The notes below the pieces were generated by a model, which worked only from the letters and a program-made list of their open reading frames with translations, was not told the DNA's origin and ran no database searches. From assembly GCA_903856085.1 (NCBI GenBank), contig CAIOAT010000013.1, forward strand, positions 295,430 through 359,429: a stretch of DNA of 64,000 bases. The letters are read 5' to 3'. This document shows positions 37,765-59,897 of this stretch, piece after piece (the first letter of the stretch is position 1; every line of letters starts with the position of its first letter). The stretch comes from Candidatus Omnitrophota bacterium (GTDB lineage Bacteria; Omnitrophota; Omnitrophia; Omnitrophales; Aquincolibacteriaceae). A program made the position numbers and the translations under genes.

Positions 37765-38622
37765 CTAAATGAATTCAAGATGGATCTGTTTCGGAATGAT
37801 CTTGTGCCGGCACGCTTCATCCAGCAATCTACGGAATCCCGCTTCCCCGTCTTCTCCGAGATCGACCGTGCGATCATTCACATACATGGCAACGAAGCGG
37901 TCGTTCAGGTCCTCAGAGATCCCGCGACCGAATTGGCTCGCGTATTCTAAGGCATCCTTCCTGTGGTTCAAGGCATATTCAATGCTTTCTTTAAAGAGCT
38001 TGGCGAAGGAAGCTATCGTCTCCTGCCCCAGATCCCGGCGGATGATATCGATCCCAAGCGGAAGCGGGAGCTTCGTCTTTTGATGCCACCATTCCCCGAG
38101 GTCCAGGACCTTTTCGAGACCGTGTTCGGCATGCGTGATCTGTCCTTCATGGATCACAAGCCCGTAATCCACTTCCCCGCTTTTTACCGCATCAAAGATT
38201 TTATCGAAAGGAACAAAAACCGGCGTGAAATCTTTTGTGTGGAGTTGCAACACTAAAAATGCTGTGGTCAATTTTCCGGGGATCGCAATTCTTGTATGAC
38301 GATCCACGTTCCACGATCCGCGTTTCACATTTCCCGTGGCCCGCGCAACAATGATCGGCCCATAATTGTCGCCGACACTCGCCCCGGACCGCATGACGAG
38401 ATATTTGTCCGCGAGATAAGCATACGCGTGACAGGAAACGGCCGTCACTTCGAGTTCTTCTTTAAGCGCGCGCTGATTGAGAGATTCGATATCCTCGATC
38501 ACATGTTCGACTCGGAATCCCCGCATATCGATCTTTTCATGAGCGAGGGCATAGAACATGAACGCGTCGTCAGGGTCCGGACTGTGACCGACTCGGATAA
38601 TTTTGGGGGATGTTTCAAGCAT
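37765..38622 (-). CDS. MqnA/MqnD-family protein (futalosine-pathway menaquinone biosynthesis; likely 1,4-dihydroxy-6-naphthoate synthase)
   Basis: 285 aa with N-terminal VGHSPDPDDAFMFYAL, characteristic of the MqnA/MqnD periplasmic-binding-protein-like fold. Confidence 0.6.
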   Translation of the reverse strand: MLETSPKIIRVGHSPDPDDAFMFYALAHEKIDMRGFRVEHVIEDIESLNQRALKEELEVTAVSCHAYAYLADKYLVMRSGASVGDNYGPIIVARATGNVKRGSWNVDRHTRIAIPGKLTTAFLVLQLHTKDFTPVFVPFDKIFDAVKSGEVDYGLVIHEGQITHAEHGLEKVLDLGEWWHQKTKLPLPLGIDIIRRDLGQETIASFAKLFKESIEYALNHRKDALEYASQFGRGISEDLNDRFVAMYVNDRTVDLGEDGEAGFRRLLDEACRHKIIPKQIHLEFI

Positions 38623-38738: not shown

Positions 38739-41700
38739 TTACGCGCTCTTCGCGGTCGCGAAATACTCGGCCTGCATCTGCTCGACAAACTTGCTCACGC
38801 CGAGGCCGGCGAGATTGAGGAAATTCCGGAACATCTTCTGATCGATCGTCACGATGTTTTCTTTCAGCTCTTCTGCCAGAAGTGCCGTCTGGGGATTATG
38901 CGCTCCCGCGAAAACCATGGCCTTCAGATTCCAGGAATCACGGATAGGTGCGGCTTCACGATCGGTTGCCAGAAGTTCTCTCGCTTCATCCAGATTGGCG
39001 GCCGACAGAATGGTGGGCCGATTCGCTTGACGAAGTTGCTGATTGATCTTTTCAAGAAAAACGCGATCGGTGGAACCTTTTTCAGACAAGACAACGACAG
39101 GAATAGCTCCGAATACATTCCGGATCACATAAATAAGGCCTCGCTTGAAGGCTGTTTCGGGATCAAGAACAAGCGCATCGCTCGCCTGGATCGTCTTGAC
39201 GCCCAGCGCACGATAAAGCATCTTGATCTTAAGCTTACTGAAGAAATTCTTCGGCTCACGGGTCAACGTGACCGGTTCTCCAGCATAAGCAGCCGGGATC
39301 AAATTCGACAAGATAATATCTTTTGCCTTGTTCGTATAAGCCAAGAGCGAAACGATGCCATCCGCAAGTTTTTCTGTAACACCCCGGATACCTTGTTCGC
39401 GTCCGCCACCCCTCCGGAAGTTATCCTCAAAAAAATCACGAAGCCCGGCTACCGGCGACGAGGGTTTCGTCTCTTCAGCCGATCTCAATTCAGAGCGTTT
39501 GTTCAGTTCCATAATACCCGCTTGCGGCGCGTTCATGAAATGCAAGATCTCATCCCGGACTCCAGGACGGCTCTCCAGAAGGTCCTGCACGGGCCCATAG
39601 AACTGTTTAAATTCATGCCCGGCCATCCCCAAATGCCAAACGCTTGGCGACTGGACCGCAACGTGCGCATAGGGCAGCTTGACGTAAGCAATGGCGTGGA
39701 TCACCTCGGGATCGATCACGATCGTATCCCCCGCCTGGACCTTCATCACATATTCTTTCGAATGCTGTGTTTTGATATAAAAACCCATAGCTCCGTCGGC
39801 GACGTAATACAATTCGATGGCCTGCGCGCGTTTCCCTTCATGCTCCAGGGAAGAGCGGTGGGAGTGCACTCGCTCCCTGTCGCCATAGAGTTTCTCATCG
39901 TAGCGTGACAGATCCCTCCCGGGAAAAGATCTTTCCTGGGGTGCGTCTTCCCGGATGAGAGATGCCCCGTTCCAAAGAAACTGGTCTTTCCCGTCTGCTT
40001 TCCTGAAATGAGTATAGGCGGAATTGGCCCACTGGGTCGGCATACGGGAACTCGCGTACATAAAATTCTGTTTATCGGAAAGGGCGATAACAAGCACTCC
40101 CAGTTCCTGGAGCTTTTCGTTTGAAACTACCGCGGAGCGATCCGGCCCCGGGTGCGGCAAAGCCCTGAAATCCTCGCTTCCAAAATCCTTGAACCACGGC
40201 GGTGCCTTCCGCATATGGATCATGAACTCGGCCCCGCTCAAATCCAGAAGATCCAGAGTCACTCCCGGCGCTAGGTCTTTTATTACGATCACGCCCCGCT
40301 CGTTGAGCTCAATGACCTCCCGGTAGTTTCCGTGATTGACCTTGATCTTGACGGCTCCTCCCTGGACGTTATAAATCTGGATCTCGCCCGCAAAACCTCC
40401 GGCGACCTCTCCAGCCGCGAGGGCGCGTAGATATTTTTCTATCTGAGGGCCGACGTAAAAACTCAGATCCGAATCGCCTTCAACCTTCTGTCCCATCTGA
40501 CCCATATCGATCGGTTGAGTGAGTAGCTGTCCATTCTGGAAACGGTAAAAGTTCCCTGTCTGATGCGGCACCAGGGGCTGTAATGCACCCAACTTGGAAT
40601 ATTCAAAACCATCCGCCTTGACGAACCTCTTGATCCCCGCGATCTTGGCGTAGATCATTTCGTCCGAAGACGGCACCGGCAGGATCTCGAAGAAATGGAA
40701 CTGCCCCGGCCTCAGGATCACATTCAACGGCTTCATTTCGTCGGGCGTTCTTATGAAGGTAAGATCGTTTTCATGGGGCCATTCAAGCGCTCCCTTCCAA
40801 AAGCGGGTGCCCCGGTCACGAAGAATGTAGAAGTTGGAGGAAAAATCTGCACCAAAATATTTCTTGAGATCCAAGGAGATCGCGGCCACACCGTCTTCGG
40901 TCCGGCCTTCGTGGGTGATCCCCAAGAACCATTTGCCGTCGTAAGAAGTCATGGAGGCGGCCACCGTGGCATTTTTAGCATTCCAATTTCGCACCTGGAG
41001 CGGCGTCACGGTACCTTCAAAAAATGCGCGGTGCGAAACGAGCTGATTCCGGAATCCTTGAGCAGGATGCACATTGATCATCCCTTCGGGTCGCTCACCG
41101 CGAAGGAGCTCTTCGATGGAAACCCCACGCGCTTCGGACCGCTGGAGCGGAATAGTCGCTTTAGGGACCCTCCGGACAGCGGTGAATGCGATGTCCTGAT
41201 AGCTGTTGATCTCAAAACCAGAGATCGTAATGGGGATCTGCTGGACGGGAACTTTACCGACGGCTCTATAAAAATCCGCGAACTCCTCGGCCGTCATGCG
41301 TCCCTGAACGGGATAGACCAGCGTCACGTGAAAAGGCCGTGGCGGATTACCAAGACCAAGATGTTTTGCGATCGTCCCTTGGACTACGGCCAATGGATCT
41401 TCTTTCCCGTCAGCTTTCCAGATCATGACCACGCCAAGATCCCGGTGCCAGTAGGGCCCGATCAATTTTCCGTGAACTTCGGAAACGGAAGAACTTCGAA
41501 ACGCCTGCCGCAAAGCTTCGGTTGTCTTACGAAGAAAACCATTGTCGACTTCCGCCGCCGTCACCCCATGCTTCAAGCCCTGCAAAGTCAGGTGAAGCTC
41601 ATCCTGAGGAACCGTCAGAACACGAGGTCCGAGCGCGCCCTGGATCTCGGCTTGGATCTGCGTCATTTTTTGGACCGCTGCTTCCTGGTCCTTCCCAAAG

Positions 41701-44700
41701 AAAACACAAGCTGAGGCTCCGCGAGCGGTCACGATCTTGCCGCCCTTGAAGTTTTCCGCGATCCTCGGTAATTCCACCGCCGGCTGATCGCTTTGTAATA
41801 GCGAATCCATTTGCGCCTGAGCTTCAGTCCAAAACGCGTTCGAGGGACTTTCTTTCAATAAGCCAACAACCTTCTTGGCGTTAGCACTGATTTTCTTGGC
41901 CCCAAGGGTCGTTTGGATCTCTTGGGTGTCCCTCATCTCAGAACGCTGCTCAGAGACAGAAAACTCTCCATCCCTAACTCCGCCCGCTTGTTGCGCCCAT
42001 ATCCTCTCGGTGTGAAAAGCCGCATCCTGCAAAGTAACATCGGACGGCAATAAGAAGACAGTCGCTCCAAACGCTCCTGTGAATTGAGGGTATTTTTCGC
42101 GCGGATCGATTTCCGCAACAAGCTCATAGACGCCTTTCTCACCAGCCTGCTGTAAAGGCTTAATAATCCCTTCCCCCGGGATCTCCTGATCATGCCACGG
42201 CGGAACCGAGGTCCCTTTGCCTCTCGGTCCAAAGTGGACGAAGAAACGAGCCCTCTGAAGAGCTTCGTGCTTCATCCGAACCAACAACTTCAGCTGAAAA
42301 CGTCCGGACGCCTGCGGCTCGATCCTTACGCCTTTTTCAGGAAATTCAATGGCTCCTGCCAATTCCGCTTTCGCAGCCCCCGGAAGCACCACGGTTTTCT
42401 TTTCTTTTTGAGAAGGAATTCCGACCGCGAAATAATGAAAGCCGTTCGCTTCCAACTCATAAGGATCGTAGAAATGACGTCCGTCCACAACATTGAAATG
42501 CTCTGTAACGGATTTTCCAGAGGCCTCGGTCATCCCTCCCTCAAAAAACAGTGTTCGCCAATCCGCGTATTCGGGCCATTCGGTCACCAAAATTTGGGCG
42601 TCACTACCGCGAATCGCCTCACGCGCATTTTCAGCTGCATTTGTTTTATGATCGAAAAATTCGACCCCTTTAAGGTCCATCGCCCTTTTTGAAAAATGGT
42701 TTCGCACACTCGAAGCTGTGGCAGGATGCGCGTCCGTGACCCGCACCTTGGCGCCCTGTGCTAGCAACGCTTCTATTAATTTCAGGGAGGGCGCATTTTC
42801 AATGGAAGAATTCGGCCCGGGCTTATAAGCAAGGCCCAGAAGTGTGACCGTTTTCCCGCTCAAATTGCCTCCGACCGCTTCGCGCGTCTTATCGACATAG
42901 AGTTTAACCGCTCGCTCATTGCTCTCAGCGAACGCGGTAACAAAAGGCACTCTTGTGTCTGTCCCGTTACTCCCGCTAAACCCATAATGGCGCTTTAGGA
43001 TCTCGATCTGTTCTCGATATTCCCGGAGTTTGTCCATAAGACCTTCGCTGTGACTCTCTGCGAATTTAGTAAATTTTTCAAGAGCGGCAAAAAGATCGAA
43101 TCCACCAAACCCGATCCCGGGCTTCAGGTAGAGGTCTCCCACGACAGGATCCGCGCCAAGGCCTTTGAGGATGTCGCGAATATCGCCTCCCGACCTTTCG
43201 GCCAGCTCCGCGAGCGAGATCATAAAAGCGATCCTTCCGGCGAGAAAAAATTCGATCGCTTTTTTCACGAATTCGTCCATTCCACGGGTCAGAGAAGTAC
43301 CGGTTTCCCCGACGAAAGGACTCGGCAGCGTTTCATGGCTGATACCAAAATATTGAAAACCAAAACCCGCAACCTCCGCGGGATCCCAGGCGTTGCGCCC
43401 GTCAAAAACAAGCGGCCTCTTCTCCCTGTCGGGGAACATCGTTTGAACCTTTTTAAAATTGAGCTGTCTGAACGCATCCCATTCAGTGACAAGCACGATC
43501 GCACTGGCCCCTTCCATCATGCTGTAAAGATCTTCCGGATTTTGAAAATACTGCACGGGCGCCGCAGTGCCGGTGCCCGGGGCCGGATTCAGATCCGCAA
43601 GGGTTTTTTGTAAAGAGGGGATCGCCACAGGATCATAAACCCGCACCTGAGCGCCCCATTCCACCAATTGACGGATGATCAAGATAGAACGCGCTTCCCG
43701 GTCGTCGCTGGTATTGGGTTTAAAAGCCGCGCCCAGCACAACGACGGTTTTGTCTTTCACCCCGTCGAGCTTTTGCTTGATCCCGTTCGCGAACATTTGC
43801 CACTGTGCTTCATTGACCGCAAAGGTATCCATCATGAGCCCGAAAGGCATACCGGCTTTCGCCAGCTGTCTCATGAAAGAAAGGGAATCTTTCGGAAAAC
43901 ACGACCCGCCCCATCCGATCCCGGCTGAGAGAAACATCGGTCGGATCCTGGGGTCCGCTCCGAGTTTTTCAGCGACCTTTTTGACATTGAATCCGAAAAG
44001 CGCAGCATACCAGCTCAGGTGATTGATGAATGAGATCTTCCAGGCCCGGTAACCATTGGCCGCATATTTGACGAGCATGGCGCTTTTGATCCCCATCTTG
44101 AAGATCGGGATGGGTTTCCCCGGGTATTGAGGATTGATATTTTTCGGATCGTAAAGCGCTGCCACCCGGTCGGCAATCGCCGGCTTCTCAGCGCCAACAG
44201 CCATGCGCCCGGAACCTCCGAGGGCATCCTCCACCTCCAACCCCTCGCGCAGGAATTCCGGGATCCAGGCAAATTCGATCTCGGCGCCTTGCGGAAGACC
44301 GACCTGGTGTATCCTGGCTTTCAGCCTGTCAATGGTCTCTGGCGGAGCCGTGCTCTTTCCGATAATGATCTTCTTCTCGCCGGGTTTCATCAGTCGGGCG
44401 ATATCAGCAACCGCATCTTCGAGGAAATGGGTGTCACTTTCCCCATTGGAAAGATAGGGCGTCGGCAGGGCCAGGTAGATGATCTCGCGGCCCTCGATCG
44501 CTCCAGCAAGATTCGTCGTGAATCGGAGACGTTTCGCCGCCAAGCCTGCTTGGAGGAATTCCTCAAGACCCGGCGCGTAATTGACCAGCTTTCCACCATT
44601 TAAGGATGCCACGCTCGCGGGCTTAATATCCACAGCGGTCACATCATGACCGAATCGGGCAGAAAGCATAGAAGCTTCCGTCGCACCCACAAACCCTGCG

Positions 44701-47700
44701 CCACCGATCACCGCGATCTTCTGAGCCTCGTGCTGTGGCCACGCCGCATTTAATGTTCCGGCGTCTGAGGTTCCTGTCCTCGCTTCAGATCGCATCCCCT
44801 GCGTCGCCCCCTCAGAAGAATTGACGCCCACCGGGACCATTTGAAGGACCTGAAAACGCCACCCCAGCTGAGCGATCCCCGCGGGATCTTTCCTCTTCAC
44901 CACTGAAATGCCGACTCTCCATCCTTCTTTTTGAATAGAAGATAATGTGTGTTTCTTTTCGTAATCGATTTGGAGCATATGATCCCGGGTCTGATACACC
45001 AGGCTGGACTCCAACCCGAGCAACGAAATGCTCCCGACCCCGAACCACACTTTTCCTTCCTCTTTATTATAAGGAACCTTCGAGAAATGGATGGGAACCA
45101 CAACATGACGCTTGTGCTCGAATCCGTCCTTTTCTTCCTTCAATACTCGCGCAAGAACCACGGCCGTATCCCGGCTCGAATCGAGAAAAAAGACCTCTCC
45201 TCTTTCGAAAAGATCTTTCGTCTCAGGACTCTGCATCATGTTTTTTAATGCCCCGTAAACTTCCGCATCCCACTCTTTCATGTCCTCAAGAAGTTCGGGC
45301 ACAAGCGTCGCGATAAAGGCCATCACGGGACGAACGCCCTCCACCCCGAAAATAGCGTGGGCTTTGTCCCTGCCGATACCGGAAACCGTCTGAAGAAGCA
45401 TTTTCAGGTCTTCGGGCTTAGTCCCCTGGATCATTCGCTTTAGCCAATAAGTCCTAGGCTTTTGCTGCCGCAACTGCTCTCCAGAATTTCCGGAAACAAG
45501 AGAGCGCAGATCGTCCAGGATCAGAGATCCTCGCTGTTCTCTTTTCTTTTCCGGCTTCATGACCCCCGCGGCCTGCAATTCAAGGATTTGAAAATCGGGA
45601 ACTCCGATCGGTAAAGCCCCCTCCATTAACACCGAAAGAGGATAAGGCTTCCTCTCCTCGCCCGCCCCGTAAACTTCCCCCGTGATCGTATTTACAATGT
45701 GATAAGTCATGGCAGCTTCTGGATCGAGCATGTCCGTGAGCCATTGAAACGCTTTGTTTCCGTAAAACTGTCCCCAGGCCTTCGATTCTCCTCCGTCGAT
45801 GGCAGGATATTTTTGCTCTCCCAGATTAAGTCCTATGATGTATTTCTTATCGCCGACCTGAACGCCAAACCCTACAAGCTTTTTGTTCAAGGAACCGAAC
45901 CTCTTTCCCTTGGATTCCAGCAGGAAATAGAGGTTCTGCCGGAAAAGCTCATCCCTAAAAAGCCTTTCGTATTCTTTGCTGCGCGACTGAATGTAACCCT
46001 GCAAGACGGTCTCGGAGAGTTGGACCACAAAACGATCAAAAAGCCGGAGCGCCGCCAGATGAATCCGGACTTTTTCTAAAAGATCGTTCGTTTTGTCAGC
46101 CTCCGCCTTGAGCCGCATCATTTCCTGATAAAAATCGGGAGCTTCCTTTTCGAATCCTTCGAAATAATAAAGGATCTTTGCGAAGATCTCGCCCCTCGCC
46201 GCGTGATACGCGATCGACTTGTAGCTCTCGACGCCATGCGTCCGTACTTGCCGGGCGCTTTCAACAAACGTCAGGACTCCGGGAGGAGCGATCTCCAGAG
46301 CATTCGAAGGCTCACTCCTCCAGACAAATCCTCCGTCATTCCCGGATTTTTTTGAAAGAAATCTCAAAGCGCTTTCGGCAGAAAGTCCCGGCTTTGCCAA
46401 CAGAGCTTTTTGTTTCTCGGATTTCTGAACGACCCTCTGCCAAAGCTTGATATGCGCCCTTGCCTGACTTTTTTCCATATCGACCAGAGGCGAGGACCGG
46501 AGCGCTTCCCACTGAAGATTCATTCTGTCGCCAGAGACCGCGTATGCCTTTTGAAGGGCGATAAGGTCCTCGATCATGGATTCCGCGAGTGGATAAGGGG
46601 CGTTGACGACCTTGATATTCCCGTTGTCGTCGAGAGTGCTTAAGATGAACTTGCCGTCGCCATCCTTGCTGTAAAACACCAGAAAACCATTCGTGATCTT
46701 CCACTTTTTTGATTTGAGATTCTCAACCACCTGTTCGTAAGTGATCTTATCTCTAAAAATATCCTTTTCGAGCCCAGTCTCATTATCCACGATGGTGAAA
46801 AGTTCCGGCTGCGCGCCTCCCCAGGCCCCCATCAAAATGGCCCCGTTCGGCAGACCTTTCATCATACTGGTCGCGGAAGCCTCAAGGATCATGTAGGTGA
46901 TCATGACGGTTCCGGAAACGCCCTGGAAAATAATGGGCGCGTCTTTAATATTGTAGTTCTCGATGGTCGCGAATTTATCTTCGAGTTTAAGTTCCCGGAT
47001 AAGACGCTGGATCTCCAAGAAGAGCCCGTGCGCCTCATCATCGAATTCCCGGCCGCCGATTATGGCGCGCGCCGCCGTCTTTTTATACTGTTCGAGTTTG
47101 GCAGGATCTGCCGCTAGCGACCGGAGAATCTCAAGCCATTTGTCCGGCCCCTTGTAAGAAACCTGTCTGCGCACATTCGAAACGATTGCTGTTAAAAGGA
47201 ATTGCTTCCTGAGCGCCTGGGCCTTGGGATCCTTAAAGATCTGTTGCCATTCACTCTCATCTTCCAACGCCTTTTGGATCCGGGCTTGAAGATCTGCCAC
47301 AACCTGAGGCCCATCCACTTCCGTGATACCGAATTCTTCCTGATACGACTTCATCGCCTGATCGAACCATTCGGGTTTGTTCTGGCTTGCCTTGAGCCAT
47401 AGCATCAGCCGCCCCGCAAGGTAGGACTTGATCATGTCCGTTCTTTCCTTGAATTCCCCCAGGAAAGCCTCATTCCCCGGATGGCCAATCTTGATGAAGA
47501 AATCCCGGTCATCCGATTCAGAAGACATCCCGAGTTTCGCTTTGTAAGTATTGATCAATTGACGCAAAAACGGCGCCTGCCATTGTTCGAGCAGTACCCC
47601 GTTGGTGCTCCGCAGCCCACCCTGGTTGAAGCTATCGATCACATCGACATACCCCGGCATCACGCCTCCGGACACCGCGGGCGTATGCTCGTACAACGCA

Positions 47701-50700
47701 ACACCGGTCACGAGATCGTAAGAAATTCCCACCGCATCCACGATGCTGATCGTTCCATTCCTGATAATGCGCGACCGCATCGCCTGGGGATACCCCAAGA
47801 GTTGAAATGAGGCTTCAGCCGGCCGGTAGATGGTCGGCGAATACACAGAATGATTCATGTGGTGATGAGGCGCATCCGGAAAAAGAGGCGTCGGGATACT
47901 GGCGAAGACCTCGTTATCCACAAAGAGAATTTTCTTTTTAGCGATGCCCTTTTCCTGGAGTTTTAGCGTAAGGAGTTCTTTGGTTTTCCCATAAACTGCC
48001 AGATGCAGATCACGCCAAAGATTGGGACCGCCATCACGAGTATCCGGATAAACTTCATCAAAGATTTGGACCTTTGTCCCATCATCGGCAATATAAAAAG
48101 CCTCGATATAAAAATTCGGCATCCCGCCGGAAAATGTGTTTGTCGGATAAACCTTAACTTTGATCTCGCGATCCACCGCTTCTCGGGCTTGCTGGAGCCG
48201 TTTCTTATACAGCGGGTCCCCTGCGCGTCCGATCCATTCCTCAGCTTTGGCGCGGTATTCATTGCCAGCATCGAGAAAAATACTAAAACTCAATCCAGGA
48301 TCTTCGGTCAAAACCTCGCGAAGATAATCCCCCAGCGTCTTCTTACCGCTCGTCACTTCCTCCGGAAGATCTTTGGCGAATTCCTGTCCCTTGATCCGGT
48401 CATAGATCACATTCACGGCAAAAGCGTCGATGTTCGCTTTCTTGGGCTGGCCAAAATTCTTTTGCCACGAAGGAAAAAGATCATGCATCAGAGCTCCTAA
48501 TCCCCCCGTCACGGTTGTTGCTGCGACCAAGCCCGCAATCGTTTTGCCATATTTTTCTTCAAGCTTCTTTAGGATTTCACGATCCAACCCCGCCTCGAGT
48601 TGCCCAGTAACAACGGTATAATCCTCTAGCTCGGGAGCATTTTTCTCGGCCCAGGAACGCAATTCGGCGCGCTTGGAATTTGCTTTTTGAGCCACGCGAA
48701 CCATGGCTTGCGCGATTTCAAGACCATTTCCCACAGCCCCGCCTTCGATCACAGGCAAAACATTCTCGGACACATATCCGGCAGATCCGAGAGCATAAAG
48801 AAGCAATTGACCGCTCTCCTCCGCAGCCTGAACTCCCCTCGAGATACTGCGCGGCATGTTGCTTATAAATGCCGCAAGTTCTGAAATCGTCGGAAGATAA
48901 TGAGGCATGAAAACCGCTGCGATCGCAGCAGGATCCGCCGCCCGAGCTTCGGAACGAAGGGCAGCAAGAGGAATGCCATTTAAATGGAACGCGTTAAAGC
49001 GGGCTGTTTCATATAATTTTTTAAACTCCGGAACCAACTCGTCCCAGTCGCGGACAGAATTCATCCCGCGTGCTCGCATATCATAAAAGGCTTGGGGATC
49101 GTTCATGTAGACCGCAACAGCTCGCTCAGTAGCCTCATCAAAAAGCTTCATGACTGCTTCAAAGGACGGGGTTTTCTCAAGATCTTTGATCTTGTTCAAT
49201 CCTGGAAAATAGAACTTGAAGCCTGTGGCCATCGCCGCGTCTTCCTTGGGGTCCAGGACCGTATTATCAAGCCCGCCCACCGCATGCACGATCGGGATTC
49301 CGCCATACCGGAGGGCCTGCATTTGGCCAAGTCCGCAGGGTTCAAATTTTGAGGGCATAAGAAAAAAATCTTCCGCGGCATGTGCCTTCCGAACGAGCGT
49401 TTCACTGAAGGCGGGCGTGAAATAGGCGCGCCCCGGGAATTGCGCCATTAAGGCCCTGAAACCCTCCGCGTAGTGATTTTCCTCCCCGATCACGGCGATT
49501 TGAGCATTCGGATGCCGATTCAAGAGCCGGCGTGCTTCTTCAAGGATCAGCTCCGGACCCTTTTGATCCGCAAGTCGCGTAGCCGCCACAAAAAGCATGG
49601 CGTTCGGGTTTTGCTGGAGGCCGACTTCTTTTTGAAACTCTAATTTATTCGCACGCTTGCCTTCGGCTACGTTTTCAGACGTGTATTTTTGATAGATTTT
49701 GTTATCCTTCGATGGATTCCAAACACCGCTATCCACTCCGTTCAAGATCCCCGTGAAATCATCTTTCCGTTCGAGAAAAACGCCTTGCAGACCCGTGTCG
49801 GGATCCGCAAGAAGTTCTTCGCGATATTTCGGGCTCACCGTCATGAATTTTTCCGAAAAAACAAGCCCGGCCTTCATCAGATTGAGCCCGCCATGGAATT
49901 CGAGATACTTCCACCCAAACGCCCATTCGGGCATCCCCATGGACATAAGAAGCTGTTTGCCGTAATTAAAAAGATCCGGACCATAACGCTGTTGATACGC
50001 CGCATCAGCATTATGGATCGTCATCGTGATCCCGGAGGTCTGGAATTCACTGGGGAAAGCGGCTCGGATAAAAGCCGCGACAAGTCCCGGATGCGCGTCG
50101 TGTAGATGAATGATGTCGGGTTTCTTGACAGCGAATTTTTTACGAAGGATCTCCACGGCGGCACGAGAAAAAACCGCGTATTCCCGGAGCCCGTCGAGAC
50201 TTCCGGAACTCCAGTAGCCTTTTTGAAAATAACCGTCTTTCTTGATGAAATAATACCGGACACTGTGCGCAACTGCGGTATAAACCTCAAAAGTTTCCTC
50301 GCGCCCTTCGATGGGGATCTTCACAGTAAACCCAGCATTTTCAACTTTGAAAGTTTTCTGGGTAAAAACCGAGGGGTGGCCCGGCATGATCACAAATTGA
50401 TGAGCCCCTAAATGTTTTAAAAGCGCCGGCGGTTTTTCCCGAACGACATCTTTCACTCCCCCTTTGCCAAAAAAATCCGCCGATTCCATCGCGATATGAA
50501 CCACATCGTGGACCGGCATAGTCATGGCTTCATCGTTTCGCACCTCACTCCGGACTTTTCGGCTCGTAGGGGGCGCAGAACGAAACGCCGCAGGCAATAT
50601 GTTTATATGAAGCTGCTGCCCTAAAAATAACGGGTTAAAGTTTCCGGCAAGTTCCGCCGCCACACTCAGCGCAGCCTTTTGAAAACTTTGGGGAGACACA

Positions 50701-53700
50701 GCCATAAGGGTAAATGAAGGTCCCGTAGCATTCCAAACAGGCAACCCCAAGACCGCAAACCCTGCTCCGCTGAAAGCAAGGATCGCTTCCTTTTCGAACT
50801 GAAGGTGGGAATATGAGCGATTAGCCCTCTTCTCGGAGCGAAATCCCCCGGAAAATGCGGGCTTTCTCACGCGAGAAGAAGTGAAGTGGGCCTGACCGAG
50901 AGAGTCCACGCCGGTGAGCCGGAGGGTGAACTCTAAATCTTCGCCTGTTGTCCCGCTCGGAATTTTCGATTTGAATTCAAAACCGACATCGCGCCACTTC
51001 AAATCAACAGAGGGCATAGAAGCGCCCCGGGAGGGGTCATAAAGGGTCGAGGAAACCTCAAATTGGGCCTGACTTCCTTGGCTTTCACTCTGACGCAGTT
51101 TTGTTTCGGCTAAACGGATCGTGATGCCCGGAAAAATTTCCGCCGTTTTCCCGGAGCTCAGCGTAACCAGATGTTCAATTTTGCTGAAATCGAATGGATC
51201 TTTGATTGACTCAACAAGCGTTCTGTTTTCAGCTGTCGGCTGACCTTCATCCCGTATTTCGGAACGAATAAATTTTGCGGTCGAACCCTGCGGCAATGTC
51301 ACAGTGGGAATTTCATCCAGCGGACGCGGTTGAATGCTGAGAGGAACCTGGATGTTTTCCTTAAACTCTGTTTGCAAGATCCTTTCCACCACCGGGATTG
51401 CGCGAAGGATTCCGTCCTGAATTTTGTCACGCCCAAGGCCATCATAAAACCAATCCAAAATGGGAGCCGGCGCTCTTTTTTGACCTTCCTTATAATGAGG
51501 GTCTGTTTCGTTTAAAATAGCAACAATCACTGCGTCTGATATCTGACCTGTGGTGTTTAATTTTGACTGGATAAGCGCCACGGCTTTGGCTTTATCAATC
51601 TTCAACCGGTCTCTCATATTCATAGCAGAGTAAAAAACATCCCCGGCAAACTCTCTTCCGAGGAGCTTCCAAAGAACCACTCGCTCAAAACCTGTCGCGT
51701 TGCTTAGAAGATACCGTTTGGGACTTTGCGGATCTCCCCATCTTCCGTTGTAATCACCCCAAAAAGCATTCACGAGCGCCTGCAGGGACTGTCCATACTT
51801 GAGCTCCTTGGGCGGCTGAGGAAGGCTTCCCATTTTTATATTTTGCATCCACTGAGGAGCGACATACATCTTATCGGGTGTCTGTTTCAACAAGCCTTCA
51901 GCCCGGATTTTCTCAATGGCCTGCACCGCCAACTTCCGCGTATCCGGCCAGGTCCTATTCAATTCGGCCAAAGCAACGGCCACTGCTTGGGCGGCTTTTG
52001 CCCTTATTTCTTCCATCCTTTTTATAGAAGCGGCATCCTCCGCCGCGCCGGCGAAACGGATCGGCTTCCCAACCATCCGGCTCGCATTCATATAAAATCT
52101 TTCGGCCGACAAGGCTCCGTCAAAACGAATTTCGACATAAGGCTCGCTGCCACCCCCATAGGACTCCACAGTCCCGATTCTTCCGGCCCGCTCCACGCGC
52201 ACTCCTGCCATTCCTTTAACGCCTTTGAGATTCAGGGGCACCTCTTCCCCTCCCCGCATCTCGGCACGGATTTCGCCAACAGCGCTTGGCTCCGACGTTG
52301 CAAAAGAAACCATCAAAATATCGCCACGCGTCAATTGAGTCCCGCTCTCGCCGAGCACTTGAATTTTCCTGATTTTAGAAGAATTAAATTTCCCAATCTC
52401 CCTGATGGCTTGCGGCATTGAAATATCTTCCTTGATAAGAAATTCGCCCGGAGCCAGCTCCTTGATCAAAGAACTTAGACCCGCGTTTCCTCCTTCTAAC
52501 TCACTGGCTATTGCATCCAACCGCCGCATTAGCCCCAATGTCAAAGCGCGATAGGGAGCCAGTATCTCAATGACCGAATTGACGGTTCCGATCACTTGCA
52601 ACAGATCCGCCGGGAAATAGGTCAAGGCTTGGGTTAACACACCCAGAACTTCGTGCTTGTCGTTGGGATTGAGCGAATAATTTGAATCAATTTCTGTGCG
52701 GATAGCCTTAAGCTCCGCAATCATTTCTCCCATGCGAGCTTCGGTGATTTGAGGAGCCTGCTTGCCCGCCCGCACCTCGGAGCGGACTGCTTTACCCGGG
52801 GATTTCTGTGACAGTGCCACCGATGGGATCTCGTCCATCGGGCGGGGTTTGAGCGTGATCCCGATCTCAAGCCCCTTTTGGACTTCCGCCTGGAGGATTC
52901 TTTCCACCACGGGGATGGCGCGAAGAACCGCTGATTGGACATCGAACCCGCCCTCATTCCATCTTGCAACGGCCACCGGAGCTTTGGAATTTCCGGGCCT
53001 TGCTTCTCCCCATATTTCCTCAATGGTTTTATCGGAGATACGCCCGTATTTCAATTTAGACCTTATCTGCCAAGCTGTTTTCCCTTTTTCATCCTTAAGC
53101 CTTTCCCGAAGATTGAACGCGGAAAAGAAAACATCTCCGGCCAGCTCATGCCCCAAGATCTTCCAAAGCACGAAACGCTCCACGCCTGTCGCATTGCTAA
53201 AAAGATACCGCTCTTTCGCCCTTCCGTTATAAGCTCCCCAAAAAGCCTCCACCAAGCCTTGCAGGTCTTGGGCATACTCGGCGTCCGTCATTTTACGATC
53301 TTCTTCCTCTTCGCCGAGATTCTTGGGAGGCATTGCCGAACTGCTTGCAATGGCGATTTTTTTCATCCAACGGGAATGAACATACATCCGGTCGGCGGAT
53401 TGGTTCACAAGACTTTCTTTTTTAATGAGCGCGATGGCTCCTTTTGCCAGACCCGTTGTTTTAGTCCAGGTCTTCGCCAATTCACTGGCAGCTTTTTGCG
53501 CTTCAGCTTCCGCAGCCTTTCGCGATCCCAGCTCTTCCACCTCCGAGGCAAAAAGAAGGGGTTTTCCCACCGAGGCGCTGCCTCGTAAATAAAACGGTTG
53601 GATATCACTCTCTCCGTCGAAAAGGATCTCCAAAAACGGTTCTTTTCCACCGCCATAACCCTTTACGGTTCCAACCTTTCCGCCCCGTGTCACGCGGACA

Positions 53701-56700
53701 TTCATCTTCCCTTTGATTCCCTCTAAGTTCAGTGGTACCTCGCCCATGTTTCTCACCTCCGAGCGCGGGAAGAAGAGGATCGTCACCACGGAGCCAAGGA
53801 TTTGGTCCCGGCTCCAGGATTCCATGGAAAAAGATTGGCTCCTTTTCAAACCCGCAGGATCTATATGAAGGGCTTGGTCGCCGCGCTGTGCGTCCATATC
53901 CATCAGGCCCTCATGAGCTCTAAATTGACGGATCAGCGTATCAATGAAGAGCTGCCAGGCCACCTTCGGATCCCCCGGCAGGCTCCCGTCCCCCGCAGGG
54001 ATCTCCACGGCCAGGGCATCGGCTCCCTGAAATTCCGCGGCCCGTTCGGATAAATGAACCACGGCTTTGTGATTGCGCAGAAAGTCCGGAAGCACTGATT
54101 TTCCGACCCCTTCAAGACCTTTTAAAAAATCCGCTTCGTTAAAATTGGATGCAAGCATGATTTCATCGGGAAGCTCTCCCGGGCCAACCGGGCCAACCCC
54201 CGCAACAAACGCGGCAACGCCAATGCGGTGGGTTAGGGTGTGTACCATGGGACCGATGTCTTCATCTTCAGCCTTAGAAAAAAAGTTTTGAAGAAGCTTA
54301 TCCAGCGCTCCCTGGAACAGAAGGGTCTGAGGTTCTTTTGTTTTTTGAAAGGTCTCTAAAGCCTGGGTGATAGGAGCGGCTACGGCGCCAACCGCGGATA
54401 AAACGAGGTCATTCCGACCGCCCTTGTACACGTCTTCGAGGATCTTGTTAAGCATTTTGCGGACCATTCGGAAATTTTCCGCATTAATCTGGCTCTGCTG
54501 TCCCCGGATCGCTTCGATCACTTCCCTTATCTGCCCGACAGCCTTATCCCGCGCTTCAGCGCGGGGCGCCAAAAACAGATTGGTTTGGATGTTGGGGCCA
54601 AGCCAGCGATAAACGCCCTCCGGCAACCGGTCCTTTGATTCCATAAGAGCACGCGAAGGATCATCCGTGGCAGCCGGAACCAAGAGAAATATTCCTTCGT
54701 AGTCTTTCCAGTTGTAATAAGGCGTCGTAAAAGCGGAGCCTAGAAGTTTCACCTGGTTGGCCGGAAGGCCGTAGCTCTGCATAGAGGCTTCTGAAAAGGT
54801 CCAAGATTCTTTTTGTTTCGAATTCCCCCAGCGCAGATAAACTCTGAAATTCCCGGCGTTAAGGAATGCGTCGCGTGCTGCCGAATCCGGGAATTCCAAG
54901 GTCGAAGAAAAATCAGCCCGGTCCCCGTGGATCTCCACCTTGCCATCCTTCGAGCTCATGACCGGCAGAATTGGATTTGAACGCACTTCGGCGCGGGGCG
55001 AACCGGCCGCGGGAGCTGCGTGTCCTACTGGCCGCATAGCCAACGAGGGACTTTCGGGTGTCATTCTTGCCAACACCCGATAGGCTTGCTCGGTCTCATT
55101 ACTTTTCTGATCTTGAAGAAAGGGCGTTAACCGGATAAATTTACCGAGCCCCAATTCATCAAAACTCCCGGTCGCAAACCTGACGCTTTTTTCTACGATC
55201 CGGATCGAGTTATCTTCACGCTTGCGAAGAATCGCAACGATCGGGAATTCGCCCTGATACGCTTGCAAAACCTTTGGTGTTGCATCCTGCGCGCCTTGAA
55301 CGGAGAGTTCGGTTTTTTCAAGCCCTGCTCGGAAAGAAACCCGCCCCTCGGATCCCACCACGCGATATTCCAGCGAATGGTCAGGATGTAGGACAAATCC
55401 CCAAAAGTTTGGATCTGCAGGCAAGGTTCCATCAAAACTGATAACGCCCAAGTATTGATCATCCGCCGGCAGGATCTTCACGCCGCCATAGGTCGCATCA
55501 ATCTCTTCGCCCAATGTTTTAAAAAATACGTCGACTCTTGCCGCGCGCAGTTCGGGGCGAAACAAACCCGAGGGTTGAGGCTGAGATTGCCGCGGGGAAA
55601 CGCCAACGGCAGAAGCAATGATTTTTTTGAAGCCCGCATCAAACTCCGCCCTATTCTCCGCGCTGCGATCGTGGTAAGAAGCAACGGTCTCGCGCACAAT
55701 ATCGCGAATCCTGGCAAAACGGACCGCAAGTTCGCGACGCCAAAAACGCGGCGACACGGCGCTAAAAAAAGAGACCTGCTGGGTGACTTTTTCAGGAGCG
55801 ATATGAGAACGCGTAATCGCGTTGGAGCCAAGAAGCGCTGTCAGATAATTTTTGTTGGAATCGGCTGTGATCTCGCCGATGGAAGGCATGATGCCGATAT
55901 AAGAACTGCCGGAGGCTGTGATCGCCTGTTTAAAACCCTCGGTGTGAAAACCACCGGTGATGATGACCGCTTTCGTCTGCTTGCGCTCCTTCATCACTTC
56001 GCGCGCCCTCTTCATCATAAAATCTTCACGCTCGATGGCGCCGGAGTAAAAATTCAAAGCTTGCTCGTTAAGTTGCTGTAAGGCGGGCAGCGTGTCGCGT
56101 ACGGCGCTCTCTTTGCCCCGCACCCGATCAAGCGCTTGCATTAACTCGGAAGGAGAAATTTGACGTGACAGAACTTGCTGATATTCTCCGCGAGAAAGCT
56201 CCAAATGAAACAGCTTTTTAAGGAGTTGGTATTCGCGAAGCGAGCGCACAAGCGTTTTTTCCTCATCAGTTTTTACAAGGACTTCGACCAAGGACGCAGT
56301 AAGCTTTTTAATCTCGGACTGAAGCACCTCGCTCTGGAGTTCGCTTATAAGGATCATTTGCTGGATGCGAAGGCGGAGGTTCGGGTAAGCATTAAAAGAA
56401 AAGTCGGCTGGTAACGCATCCATCAGACGCTCGAAAACGAAGCGGGTCTTGTAGAGCGGCAAACCGCCTTTTTTCGCCATTTCGAACATCGCATTCATTT
56501 CATCTCCAAGCTTCTTTTCACCGTACTCCGTACTCTGTACTCCGTACTTAGCGATATCGCGTAGAAACGTTGCTTTCTCCGCTTCAACTTTTGAGAGATC
56601 AATCTTCCCATCCAACGATCTCAGCCGGAAATAGCGGACCAGGGTCGGCCACGCAAGCTGCGCCTTAACATCTGTAAGATCATTTCGTAGGATCGTATTC

Positions 56701-57425
56701 GAAGATTTCTTGAGTGTTTCCAGCCAGCTTTCAAGCGGGACGGTCCCCTCATCGAATGCAGCGTAACGGGTTATGAGTTCGCGAAGCTCAGGGTTCAGCC
56801 GAAGGCTTGCCTCTTTTTGCCACTCAAGATAAACACCTTTCAAAAACAGATCGGAGGCTCCTCGCCCTTCATAAACTTTCCTATAGGATTCACGATCCTT
56901 GGCGTATGCCGCAGCGTTTTCAATACCGTACGCCTCTGCTTGTACAGCGTCTTTCGTACCCCGTACTCCGTACGGCAACTGATCGATCATGAACACTTCT
57001 GCGCCGGTAAGTTCCCCGGCCTGCATGAGTTTTTCGTTCACTGAATGCTGAAGTTGGGCGTTCTTAGGAAAGAATCTGAAAGGTTCGGGCGTAAGTTTAT
57101 TGCCGGCGCCTTCTAAAAGGACAAGCTGGATGCCGTAATTTTTGGATAAATACTGAAGGATATTCTGGATATTCTTCTGGGCATCGTAGTTCGCATGAGC
57201 TTCCTGGATATGAATAAGGAGAGATCCTCCTTCAGAGCTCTTGATGCTGTCCGTGATCTTGCCGAACTCCGCTGGAATTTTAAATGAGTTTTCGGAAAAA
57301 AACTTCGGGAAGTTTTCGACGGTTTGGCCATAGGCGACAGGAGCAGGCGTAAGCGTGTTGGTCACGAAGAAAGTGACAACAATAACGCCCGCAAATAATC
57401 TCTGTAACCGCTTGAGACAGTTCAT
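38739..57425 (-). CDS. Giant 6228-aa multi-enzyme protein: signal peptide + TraB/GumN-like domain + duplicated unknown modules + glycogen synthase + alpha-glucan phosphorylase + UDP-glucose dehydrogenase + degenerate UGDH-like domain + 2H phosphoesterase + cupin, joined by recurrent RSE[VA]R linkers
   Basis: Uninterrupted 18,687-nt ORF with an ATG at 57423-57425. Domain calls rest on motifs read directly in the translation (see sub-features). Antisense ORFs across it are short and carry no motifs. Confidence 0.85.
   Translation of the reverse strand: [6228 protein letters not shown]
39621..39908 (-). other. Cupin domain with a His/Glu metal site (sugar-phosphate isomerase-like), aa ~5840-5935
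   Basis: [25 protein letters not shown] (HxH…E motif 1) and [18 protein letters not shown] (P…H motif 2). Confidence 0.45.
41226..41723 (-). other. 2H phosphoesterase (LigT/ThpR-like) domain, aa ~5235-5400
   Basis: Two H-x-T-x motifs in hydrophobic context ~88 aa apart ([10 protein letters not shown] and [10 protein letters not shown]), the hallmark of the 2H superfamily. Confidence 0.55.
42546..43328 (-). other. Second, degenerate UGDH-like domain lacking the catalytic cysteine, aa ~4700-4960
   Basis: [14 protein letters not shown] aligns to the [13 protein letters not shown] block but with Cys-to-Phe/Asp substitutions, followed by a UGDH C-terminal-like [20 protein letters not shown]. Confidence 0.5.
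43626..44720 (-). other. UDP-glucose/GDP-mannose 6-dehydrogenase domain, aa ~4236-4600
   Basis: [16 protein letters not shown] NAD-binding motif, catalytic [13 protein letters not shown] (Cys present), and C-terminal UDP-binding [18 protein letters not shown]. Confidence 0.75.
46746..48623 (-). other. Alpha-glucan (glycogen/maltodextrin) phosphorylase GT35-like domain, aa ~2935-3560 (may extend further C-terminal)
   Basis: [29 protein letters not shown] resembles the PLP-lysine block EASGTSxMKxxxNG of GT35 phosphorylases. An upstream Gly-rich [10 protein letters not shown] fits the N-terminal glucan phosphorylase region. Confidence 0.5.
48966..50522 (-). other. glgA: Glycogen/starch synthase (GT5, GlgA-like) domain, aa ~2302-2820
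   Basis: N-terminal [24 protein letters not shown] (compare GlgA …E.APF.KTGGL.DVV) and C-terminal [28 protein letters not shown] (GlgA EPCGL motif). Confidence 0.7.
51267..52253 (-). repeat. Internal protein module copy 2 (aa 1725-2053), paralogous to copy 1
   Basis: [45 protein letters not shown]…MYVAPQWM…[38 protein letters not shown]…[12 protein letters not shown]…[11 protein letters not shown]. Collinear with copy 1 at roughly 45-50% identity by eye. Confidence 0.7.
52785..53750 (-). repeat. Internal protein module copy 1 (aa 1226-1547, unknown function)
   Basis: [44 protein letters not shown]…MYVHSRWM…[38 protein letters not shown]…[12 protein letters not shown]…[11 protein letters not shown]. 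Confidence 0.7.
55566..57248 (-). other. N-terminal TraB/GumN/Tiki-superfamily-like domain (paralogous to the 733-aa neighbour)
   Basis: Shared blocks with the 57696..59897 protein: [16 protein letters not shown] / IQIQDVHAHATAQQNI, LLEGAG / [17 protein letters not shown] / VTGGFHTDGL. These resemble the GxxH…E…GxGH pattern of the TraB/GumN family (assignment inferred). Confidence 0.4.
57327..57425 (-). other. Predicted Sec signal peptide / N-terminal membrane anchor of the giant protein
   Basis: [34 protein letters not shown]: basic n-region, hydrophobic core, AxG-type cleavage context. Confidence 0.55.
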
Positions 57426-57695: not shown

Positions 57696-59897
57696 ATGAA
57701 CAAGGTGCCCGTGAAAAAGCTACTCGCTGTCTTTCTTTTCCTGATCCTTCCGCTTACTTCGGCTCCGGTCGACTTGAGATCTGAAACGTCGGGACCCCAC
57801 TCGGAGGCATCTCTCCCTTTATCCAGCCTGGCGGTCCCTGAAGAGATTGGAAAAGTCCAGGAGCGCTTCGCTGGAAGCGGCTCAAGAATCATCATCCAGA
57901 TCCAGGATGTCCACGCACACGCCACCGCCCAACAAAACATCGCCGCTATGTTGGAGCATCTCCGCTCAGTGTTCGGTGTTCAGACCGTCGCGCTGGAAGG
58001 CGCCTGGGCCGCCACTTCCCTTTCTAAAAGCCATGCTATCCCGACCTCGCGTGAAAAACAGCTTCTCGCCAGAACCCTGCTTGAAGATGACAGAATCTCC
58101 GGGCCGGTTTATGCCGCGATCATGTCCTCGGAGCCGATGACACTTATTGGGATTGAAGATAACGTCCTTTACGAAAAAAACCGCGCTATTTTCCTCACAC
58201 ACCTCGTCAAGAATCGTGAGATCCAGGAAAAACTCCGGGCTTATAGCAAGACCCTTGAAGAATCTCAGCAATCGCTCTGGGGACCGAACCTTTTGACCTT
58301 TGGGAACGCTTTCGGAAAATTCCGCGAGGTTGAAGACCTTGGAAAATTTTTCCCTGTCCTCCTGAAAGCTGACGAAACCCAAAACGCTGAGATCTCGGAT
58401 CTCCCTCAGATCTCGCTCTTAAGAGACATCCTCGCCCTGGAAAAGACCTTTTCGAAGGAGAGACTGGAGCAGGAGGTCAAGCTCGTGATGCGAGAATATA
58501 AGGACACTCCCTTGACCTTGGAAGAATTGATCCGTGGCGGCAAGATCCCGGCTGAAAAAATAGGGTCTTACCCTGAGATCAAAAAACTGACTCATCTCTA
58601 TCAAATGCGCGATCAAATTTCCATTCGGGACTTAACGGCCCAGATCGAGACTTTGACCGGTCGTATCCTCGAAAAACTTCTTAAAACGCCGGAAGAAAAC
58701 GCGTTGTGGAAAAAAACCGAGCGGTTTTATCTCGCCCGGCGCATCCTTCTTTTACAAGCGACTCCCTCGGATATAACGGCCTATGAGAATGAAAAACTTT
58801 TGATCGAGCCCGAACTCGCCGAAGCCGGTCTTTCGGAAAGCCTGTCCTTGTCGCTTGATTTTTATGAGGCGGTCAAAAAACGCGATGAGATCTTCTTCGA
58901 TAAAATCATGAACGATCCGGCGCTGGCCGGCAATGTCGCAGTGGTAACAGGCGGATTCCACACGGATGGCCTTTCGCAAAAATTCCGCGACGCAGGGATT
59001 TCCTACATCACAGTCACGCCAGAACTCAGCAATACTTCTGCGAATGAAAAACTCTATGAAACCAGGATGGCGGATGACGCAGAGAGGATGGCAACAAATT
59101 CAAAGACGTCGCCTGAGATCCAACATCCAACACCCTCGGCTCACAGCGTCACACTATCCGAACTTCGAAACTCTATCGCTTGGGTCGATGACAGGTTCCC
59201 GGAAAGTTTTAAGGTGCTGCTACAAACCAAGGATGTCCGGAAAGCGGTCGCGGCTTTTCTGGGTGAGCCGGTTACGGTATCAAGATCCGCCAGGATTTCT
59301 CAGCTTTCGCGCGAAGGAAGGGTCATCCCGGAGTTAAGAACAGGGACCGCGATCAATGCCTCCGAGTTGCGGATCAGTGAATTTATGGCAAAGCCCCGTT
59401 TGGAACAGCTAAAAATTGTGCGGGGCTGGCAAACGCAAGGACCGGACCGACACGAAAAAGCAATGCTGGTCTCTTCGGTCAGCGTCCTTACGAGAATGCT
59501 TTCGCAGGAAAATGTCGTGAAACTTCTGAAGGAGGCCGTGGCGGGCGGTGATATCGTAGCGTTGGCTCAGGATGTCCCTGCAACACAAATGCCGGAGATC
59601 TTGCTATCCACCCGCGGAGTCGATCGCTTTGAGACGCCGGACATCGCGTCTCTGATCGAAAGAACGCCGCGTTTCGGACGTCTTGCCAAAAAACACCCCT
59701 TCGCGATCATGGAGAACGGACGTCAGGGCGGGGCTTATGTTGTGTTGCCGGAAAAACCAATCTCGCTTGTTCTTTTTCGCATCATCACGCTGAATCCCAG
59801 CCTTTACCAAGCCGCCAAAGATTCGGCGTTCCTAACTCTTCTGGAAGATCTCGTCTCTGAAATCTTGGCGCGGGAACTTCCACAGAAATCCGTTTAA
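57696..59897 (+). CDS. Secreted TraB/GumN-like protein, stand-alone paralog of the giant protein N-terminal domain
   Basis: 733 aa. Signal peptide MNKVPVKKLLAVFLFLILPLTSAP, then blocks collinear with giant-protein residues ~60-620 (QIQDVHAHA…LEGAWA…GGFHTDG). Confidence 0.75.
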   Translation: MNKVPVKKLLAVFLFLILPLTSAPVDLRSETSGPHSEASLPLSSLAVPEEIGKVQERFAGSGSRIIIQIQDVHAHATAQQNIAAMLEHLRSVFGVQTVALEGAWAATSLSKSHAIPTSREKQLLARTLLEDDRISGPVYAAIMSSEPMTLIGIEDNVLYEKNRAIFLTHLVKNREIQEKLRAYSKTLEESQQSLWGPNLLTFGNAFGKFREVEDLGKFFPVLLKADETQNAEISDLPQISLLRDILALEKTFSKERLEQEVKLVMREYKDTPLTLEELIRGGKIPAEKIGSYPEIKKLTHLYQMRDQISIRDLTAQIETLTGRILEKLLKTPEENALWKKTERFYLARRILLLQATPSDITAYENEKLLIEPELAEAGLSESLSLSLDFYEAVKKRDEIFFDKIMNDPALAGNVAVVTGGFHTDGLSQKFRDAGISYITVTPELSNTSANEKLYETRMADDAERMATNSKTSPEIQHPTPSAHSVTLSELRNSIAWVDDRFPESFKVLLQTKDVRKAVAAFLGEPVTVSRSARISQLSREGRVIPELRTGTAINASELRISEFMAKPRLEQLKIVRGWQTQGPDRHEKAMLVSSVSVLTRMLSQENVVKLLKEAVAGGDIVALAQDVPATQMPEILLSTRGVDRFETPDIASLIERTPRFGRLAKKHPFAIMENGRQGGAYVVLPEKPISLVLFRIITLNPSLYQAAKDSAFLTLLEDLVSEILARELPQKSV

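Follow-up and report, generated by a model that had tools for sequence, protein, structure and literature searches.

What is the unit that occurs twice within one giant gene of an Omnitrophota bacterium, and what might it do there? The gene lies in a stretch of 64,000 nucleotides from Candidatus Omnitrophota bacterium (GenBank assembly GCA_903856085.1, contig CAIOAT010000013.1, positions 295,430 to 359,429 of the forward strand), to which we refer as the window and in which all positions given below are counted. An initial annotation of the window had pointed out an internal duplication, namely two collinear and paralogous copies of a module of ~325 amino acids (aa), divided by a linker-bounded spacer of ~170 aa, and had proposed them as a candidate new domain family. 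We found that the flagged coordinates map exactly onto residues 1226-2053 of an uninterrupted open reading frame (ORF) on the minus strand, residue 1226 corresponding to position 53750 and residue 2053 to position 51267. This ORF is the host of both module copies, which we call A and B. The features needed for their comparison are the following:

38739..57425, minus strand: host gene, one continuous ORF of 6,228 aa with 16 linker-delimited cassettes and 4 cysteines (Cys)
53751..53765, minus strand: linker RSEVR, residues 1221-1225, upstream border of copy A (motif match)
52785..53750, minus strand: copy A of the module (type 1), residues 1226-1547, 46% identical to copy B, isoelectric point (pI) 9.3
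52770..52784, minus strand: linker RSEVR, residues 1548-1552, downstream border of copy A (motif match)
52269..52769, minus strand: spacer cassette, residues 1553-1719, acidic (pI 5.1), 172 aa with and 167 aa without the leading linker
52254..52268, minus strand: linker RAEMR, residues 1720-1724, upstream border of copy B (motif match)
51267..52253, minus strand: copy B of the module (type 2), residues 1725-2053, found by BLASTP, predicted local distance difference test score (pLDDT) of its model 58.6, pI 9.4
51252..51266, minus strand: linker RSEIR, residues 2054-2058, downstream border of copy B (motif match)

BLASTP aligned residues 1226-1547 with residues 1725-2053 collinearly from the first to the last residue, with 155 identities in 339 columns (46%), 59% positives and E = 4e-95, and all six motif blocks that had been listed as shared are visible in the alignment of A and B. 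Identity of 46% over 339 columns rules out both coiled-coil and low-complexity similarity. Both reading frames are intact, the module is ~315-330 aa long, and a hidden Markov model (HMM) of it gave exactly two matches in the six-frame translation of the window, copies A and B. The linker-bounded spacer was recovered as described, with RSEVR and RAEMR flanking 167-172 aa; it is unmatched in Pfam and NCBIfam, and a BLAST comparison with the cassettes from 25 further giant ORFs gave nothing. The cassettes preceding A and B are dissimilar, which rules out a duplication unit extending beyond the module.

Copies A and B are close neighbours within a single ORF, which would suit a recent tandem duplication or an assembly artefact, in which case their similarity would have no functional meaning. 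The nucleotide identity of A and B is however only 56%, the proportion of differing synonymous sites (pS) being 0.75, which is saturated, versus 0.35 for nonsynonymous sites (pN), and for A as well as for B a closer relative exists in another genome. A third copy was found in P0002, a protein of 1,964 aa encoded on ENA contigs L001 and L002, which carries the module once, at residue 791. The fourth copy occupies residues 2594-2899 of a giant ORF on contig L015, from an Omnitrophota metagenome-assembled genome (MAG) in GTDB, and is the only one in the readable portion (3,880 aa) of that ORF; foreign giant ORFs were covered over 10 kilobases downstream of each conserved N-terminal head, a region to which we return below. 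Copy A is 65% identical to the L001/P0002 copy, with a common 13-aa insert and with nonsynonymous and synonymous divergences (dN and dS) of 0.26 and 1.33 to the L001 copy, and copy B and the L015 copy share 49-51% of their residues and a 7-aa insert. The four-point pairwise distances and the shared indels give the tree ((A,L001),(B,L015)). Because synonymous sites are saturated and each copy is closer to a foreign copy than to its partner, the duplication is old, and a recent tandem event is ruled out by the same two observations. An assembly artefact is ruled out by an independent ENA assembly (P0001, contig L003), which carries the first ~2,166 residues identically, both copies included. We therefore consider an explanation by recent duplication or artefact hardly credible. 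The internal duplication noted initially stands as paralogy, with the qualification that the pair is ancient and not recent. Judged by these comparisons, copies A and B are old paralogous types, both under purifying selection. The four copies in three Omnitrophota genomes are a lower bound.

The linkers at the borders of the module belong to a pentapeptide, R-[SA]-E-x-R, which has 14 strict matches in the host ORF against 0.25 expected from composition; in 2,000 shuffles of the ORF the maximum was 3. With the relaxed pattern R-x-E-x-R, 15 of 15 matches fall between recognisable units. The pentapeptide also punctuates the giant ORFs of 24 other Omnitrophota loci, and we counted 222 occurrences per 98.5 thousand aa of giant ORFs versus 8 per 100.6 thousand aa of other six-frame ORFs. 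Small residues are found upstream and acidic residues downstream of the motif. The Arg and Ser codons at the junctions vary freely, which rules out a DNA-level repeat and places selection on the peptide rather than on the DNA. The heads of these giants share only 25-60% identity, and that the pentapeptide is nevertheless kept implies that a trans-acting factor recognises it, i.e. a protease, a modifying enzyme or a docking partner, rather than that it is a passive hinge; we regard R-[SA]-E-x-R as a candidate processing or docking site. Besides the four borders listed above, R-[SA]-E-x-R matches mark further junctions, among them:

54981-54995, minus strand: junction
54549-54563, minus strand: junction
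50538-50552, minus strand: junction
48942-48956, minus strand: junction
48657-48671, minus strand: junction
44778-44792, minus strand: junction
41931-41945, minus strand: junction
41127-41141, minus strand: junction
39483-39497, minus strand: junction

The units between the junctions are of protein size. Pfam and NCBIfam identified the recognisable cassettes of the host ORF as GlgA (residues 2307-2807), a GT35-like phosphorylase and a UDP-glucose dehydrogenase, with GT5, GT1, GT35-like and UDP-glucose dehydrogenase domains all present in this single ORF. The GlgA match covers positions 2-476 of the 477 in the model, starting 15 residues past one junction and ending 17 before the next, and the UDP-glucose dehydrogenase match covers positions 2-413 of 413 and begins 24 residues past a junction; both are full-length enzymes occupying their own cassettes. 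Alignments between window and foreign cassettes start at the first residue of both, and the junction-bounded cassette is therefore the evolutionary unit. The module behaves in the same way, lying flush between RSExR junctions in four of four copies at positions that differ among the three giants (residues 1226 and 1725, 791, and 2594). All cassettes that can be recognised are whole proteins, and the module is therefore probably one as well.

Regarding the novelty of the family, Pfam yielded no family for copies A and B at E ≤ 0.01, and at E ≤ 10 over the four members just three unrelated single-member matches of 0.07 or weaker. No match to the module was obtained in NCBIfam or PADLOC, and PHROGs gave single-member matches only, at 0.069 or weaker; an origin of the module from a defence system or a phage is unsupported by PADLOC and PHROGs. 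PDB sequences were unmatched both by single sequence and by profile. When 1.84 billion cluster representatives were searched exhaustively with HMMER, only the window protein (P0001) and P0002 came back, both unnamed singleton clusters, plus one spurious coiled-coil match. A pattern scan of GTDB genomes based on the two-copy alignment found nothing, the L015 copy being missed as it differs at both patterns, and two pattern scans of JGI metagenome contigs did not find the module. No stand-alone homologue was thus detected in the protein, GTDB or JGI metagenome searches, and all four known copies are parts of larger proteins. The proposal of a candidate new domain family consequently holds, with no HMM match to a well-known family in Pfam, NCBIfam, PADLOC or PHROGs. 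On the strength of these searches the family is very rare and had not been described before. What occurs twice in the host ORF is a real, selected and autonomous junction-bounded cassette of this new family, in the form of two ancient paralogues.

For the anatomy of the module we turned to AlphaFold. With three sequences and copy B as the target, one of five models reached a pLDDT of 58.6 and a predicted template modelling score (pTM) of 0.42, the other four staying at ~40-43; the copy A model from two sequences had a pLDDT of 38.6 and is unusable as a fold. Both runs agree on the secondary structure, with 4-5 short strands (~19-54), a helix of ~50 residues (70-121) and seven helices (133-301). 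The predicted parts are:

52050..52211, minus strand: predicted Tudor/SH3-like beta-barrel of copy B (module residues ~15-68), strands 19-22, 25-33, 39-44 and 51-54, pLDDT ~70-76
~53547-53708, minus strand: barrel equivalent of copy A
51891..52046, minus strand: predicted long connecting helix of copy B (module residues 70-121, DSSP on the model, pLDDT 54-66), also present in the copy A model
51351..51857, minus strand: predicted basic all-helical domain of copy B (module residues ~133-301), ~200 aa, from model helices and invariant columns

The module is accordingly predicted to consist of a small Tudor/SH3-like barrel, a ~50-residue helix and a basic helical domain, and none of these three parts was found apart from the others by HMM in any locus examined. 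The most strongly conserved parts of the module are the barrel and the C-terminal helical domain and not the long helix. Over the four copies the helical domain is marked by the motifs LVxAFWGxY, YL(L/F)(S/T)NAT..ER.VLW, F.SA.N.R.R and LRA(I/V)PVVER(I/M)LQ, and its net charge ranges from +2 to +6 (+5 in copy B). The module as a whole has a pI of 9.2-9.5 and a net charge of +4 to +8 in four of four copies, whereas the majority of the remaining cassettes in the window protein range from acidic to near neutral.

Foldseek gave no match of the module to the PDB at E ≤ 0.001. The top match was the C-terminal Tudor domain of PcrA/UvrD (5dma, 53 residues) with a target-normalised TM-score of 0.68, a root-mean-square deviation of 2.6 Å, a probability of 1.0 and E = 0.17, the barrel being 27% identical to it over 56 columns; next came the Lon specificity factor, Spindlin Tudor domains and chromo-shadow domains. 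A search of BFVD yielded only phage barrels of 50-70 residues, e.g. DUF1653 and DUF4314, and for the helical domain neither the PDB nor BFVD held a significant match in fold or sequence. A profile of the four barrels retrieved neither 5dma nor any other Tudor domain from the PDB sequences, and Pfam was also silent. The module may resemble PcrA/UvrD Tudor in the predicted five-stranded small barrel of its first ~55 structured residues, but differs in lacking similarity at the profile level and in that its barrel is fused to two parts absent from PcrA/UvrD Tudor, a long helix and a helical domain of 200 aa. The Tudor domain of PcrA serves in binding RNA polymerase, at the beta subunit. Of the initial statement that the fold matches no recognised family, the part concerning the helical two-thirds is borne out, while the N-terminal ~55 residues are predicted to be an ordinary Tudor/SH3-like barrel.

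The explanation that we favour overall, at a probability of roughly 55%, is that the copies are paralogous junction-bounded cassettes acting as non-catalytic binding or adaptor units of a polyprotein-like array. With low confidence, we picture the barrel as docking onto a macromolecular partner and the basic helical domain as binding a polyanionic ligand, which could be nucleic acid, a membrane surface or an acidic glycan. A and B would either recognise different targets or pair via their long helices, and the module would work as an independent unit like the neighbouring enzyme cassettes, whether it stays tethered or is set free by cleavage at RSExR. From the models we weakly infer that a barrel and a basic helical domain, with neither an enzyme signature nor a constant enzymatic neighbourhood, fit binding or adaptor function better than catalysis. 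Several points weigh against this. The module has no homologue of known function from which its biochemical role could be read. The model of the helical domain is poor at the pLDDT and pTM given above, so that an enzyme fold might go unrecognised, and the Tudor assignment of the barrel comes without support at the sequence level and with a Foldseek E-value of just 0.17. The invariant polar and aromatic residues of the helical domain (D, E, N, R, Y, W) could equally be catalytic, and RSExR could be a hinge or a docking site instead of a cleavage site. Finally, the distribution figure is a minimum, the L015 copy having been absent from the result of the first GTDB pattern scan.

Some of these points lead to the view of the module as an enzyme whose fold belongs to a new class, active for instance on glucans or sugar nucleotides, with the barrel as a substrate-binding accessory. 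Most recognisable cassettes of the giants are complete enzymes and the window protein is dominated by glucan metabolism; the invariant residues of the helical domain comprise D127, Y130, W135, N185, E190, R191, N212, R214, R216, D240, E290 and R291, and the tryptophan content of the module, 1.8-2.1%, was also counted for this view. The association with glucan enzymes is however not conserved, as P0002, which has no glycogen enzymes, combines the module with response-regulator and HEAT cassettes, and the L015 giant combines it with aldolase, HAD and ATP-grasp cassettes. Moreover, the module matches no enzyme family in sequence or fold. Family 1 lytic transglycosylases (SLT) carry the ordered motifs E-S, GLMQ and AYNxG, and an SLT-like AYNG string is present in copy A. 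We rejected this candidate family, since AYNG occurs only in copy A (DYNG in copy B), the Asn column reads N/N/A/E, E-S and GLMQ are not conserved and Pfam is silent. A catalytic module therefore appears possible but doubtful to us.

The pairing of long helices, which is one option within the binding or adaptor reading, could also be the whole function. The module would then be a purely structural spacer or oligomerisation element, A and B folding the chain back or dimerising the giant with no ligand involved. The ~50-residue helix is predicted in both copies, and two copies per chain lie just ~170 aa apart; elsewhere in these giants cassette duplication is seldom seen (two other cases among 25 partly read ORFs). 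Against this stand the single copy in P0002 and in the readable portion of the L015 giant, the fact that the barrel and the C-terminal helical domain and not the long helix are the most conserved parts, and the consistently basic pI, which suggests a ligand. We consider a purely structural role unlikely, more so than catalysis, and retain binding or adaptor function as the preferred reading.

A possible partner of the module was noticed directly upstream of copy A:

53766..54548, minus strand: cassette of residues 960-1220, possible partner cassette

This cassette is weakly similar (25% identity over 154 aa, pairwise E = 5e-5) to the cassette that directly follows the module of the L015 giant (L015:9944-10777), and both end flush at a junction. 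Going by this similarity, it may be a partner cassette of the module.

How, then, is the giant itself organised, and what surrounds it? The ends of the host ORF and the adjacent genes are as follows:

55560..57425, minus strand: conserved head, residues 1-622, with a signal-peptide-like N-terminus and a Tiki/ChaN-like domain
38742..39497, minus strand: conserved tail cassette, residues 5977-6228, last cassette of four other giants (L009, L013, L014, L022) at 37-38% identity from cassette residue 1
57696..59897, plus strand: divergent neighbour of 733 aa, a Cys-free paralogue of the head with its own signal-like N-terminus
37765-38622, minus strand: gene of 285 aa downstream of the tail, recurring after the tail in L022, L009 and L014
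37123-37722, minus strand: gene of 199 aa further downstream, syntenic in L022

From the conserved tail and the syntenic downstream genes it follows that the giant gene is an orthologous locus whose ends are conserved and whose internal cassettes vary. The head (~620 residues) opens giant ORFs in 24 GTDB loci, most of them from MAGs labelled Omnitrophota, and contains the invariant motifs LIHIQEAH ... TGGFH. PF04187 matched the heads weakly in 9 of 20 cases, with a best E of 4e-5 and all scores under the Pfam gathering score (E = 0.078 for the head in the window). These weak matches and the invariant His/Glu/Arg motifs liken the heads to the Tiki/TraB/ChaN/erythromycin-esterase superfamily, but the Pfam domain is only about a third as long as the head, whose protease activity is at most putative. 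The Tiki/ChaN superfamily includes metalloproteases. The 733-aa neighbour is syntenic in ~20 loci at 41-69% identity and was also found beside the giants on L001 and L003. It is 22-25% identical to the heads over ~500 aa, has (I/V)Q(E/D)xH ... TGGFH in common with them and bears a weak likeness to PF04187. On these similarities the head and the 733-aa neighbour are candidate junction-cutting enzymes.

The N-terminus of the host ORF begins basic, continues with a hydrophobic core (residues 10-28) and has a consensus A-x-A, which are features of a Sec signal peptide; this core is the sole strongly hydrophobic N-terminal segment, and no other convincing transmembrane segment was found in the ORF. 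Only 4 of its 6,228 residues are Cys (0.06%), compared with 0.97% in 24 other ORFs of the window, a depletion of about tenfold. In all foreign giants Cys accounts for 0-0.33%, and the 733-aa neighbour has none. Of the four Cys that the host ORF retains, one sits in the dehydrogenase motif GGSCFPKD and is presumably the catalytic residue of that enzyme. Cys depletion together with the signal-like N-terminus suggests export of the giant. Predicted export would be odd for GlgA, phosphorylase and NAD-dependent dehydrogenase cassettes.

Giant proteins of this kind have been seen before in the phylum. Omnitrophota giants termed 'multi-enzyme metabolic clusters' (class 1 of a 2026 preprint) are described with many metabolic Pfam families per chain, including starch synthase, GT1, response regulator, HAD and HEAT, and 94% of them are reported to have a signal peptide or transmembrane helices, with a large unannotated fraction (10.64898/2026.06.07.730766). 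West-Roberts et al. 2023 suspected post-translational cleavage and stated that the cleavage points were unknown, which blocked domain-wise structure prediction (10.1101/2023.11.21.568195). The host ORF shares with these giants the phylum, the tiling by Pfam domains, a signal or transmembrane segment at the N-terminus and long stretches without annotation, but the surveys cover proteins of at least 10 or at least 30 thousand aa, and the host ORF with 6.2 thousand aa falls below the 10,000-aa cut-off of the catalogue. A term search of both papers returned no mention of a junction motif, although other literature may exist, and the module itself is not described in either paper to the extent checked. 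Measured against them, the host architecture is of a known kind and the module a new family within it. Undescribed details, as far as checked, are the junction motif, the conservation of head and tail, the synteny of the locus and the depletion of Cys.

Taken alone, the module is one more orphan family in the unannotated fraction of Omnitrophota giants and of modest interest. Its context outweighs the duplication itself, as the module gives a clean example of how such giants are built, a protein-sized unit flush between R-S-E-x-R junctions whose position and copy number vary in orthologous genes. The junction motif provides an objective means to split giants into units, and makes the distinction between a polyprotein and a tethered array directly testable.

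The giants may be compared with MARTX toxins and viral polyproteins, which are arrays of exchangeable effector or enzyme cassettes that are freed by site-specific proteolysis. The giants resemble them in having a conserved head and tail, variable and exchanged cassettes of protein size and a short conserved junction, but Pfam and NCBIfam detected neither RTX repeats nor a cysteine-protease domain in the host ORF. The likeness concerns the way in which the protein may work and not membership, and cleavage is putative. The signal peptide, the Cys depletion and a cargo of cofactor-dependent enzymes of cytoplasmic type might, speculatively, point to delivery beyond the cytoplasm of the producer. 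Such delivery would fit the host-dependent lifestyle proposed for Omnitrophota (PMC10066038). Carried to its end, this would make the giant a Sec-exported polyprotein, cut at R-S-E-x-R by a dedicated protease, possibly the head or its 733-aa paralogue, and releasing genome-specific enzymes and effectors that act outside the producer, e.g. in a host or prey cell. The module would then be a released effector pair, its barrel attaching to some conserved machinery of the host, e.g. RNA polymerase, and its basic helical domain to nucleic acid. We regard this full scenario as a long shot.

Some minor observations concern other parts of the window. The UDP-glucose dehydrogenase cassette (~41946-44792, minus strand, residues 4212-5160) contains the full enzyme followed by a second, partial dehydrogenase-like region matched in several HMM stretches. 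This second region reads GIGFGGFDLF where the first has GWGGSCFPKD, with the cysteine gone, and is possibly an inactive duplicate. The next cassette (41142-41945, minus strand, residues 5161-5428) has two H-x-T-L motifs, HLTL and HVTL, and Pfam and NCBIfam are silent on it at E ≤ 0.01; the motifs are at most reminiscent of 2H phosphoesterases. Outside the giant gene, an ORF of 833 aa at 24739-27240 (minus strand) fuses a GldF-like ABC permease with a GldG-like domain; the NCBIfam matches, at E = 1e-39 and 3e-38 respectively, both fall short of the curated cut-offs.

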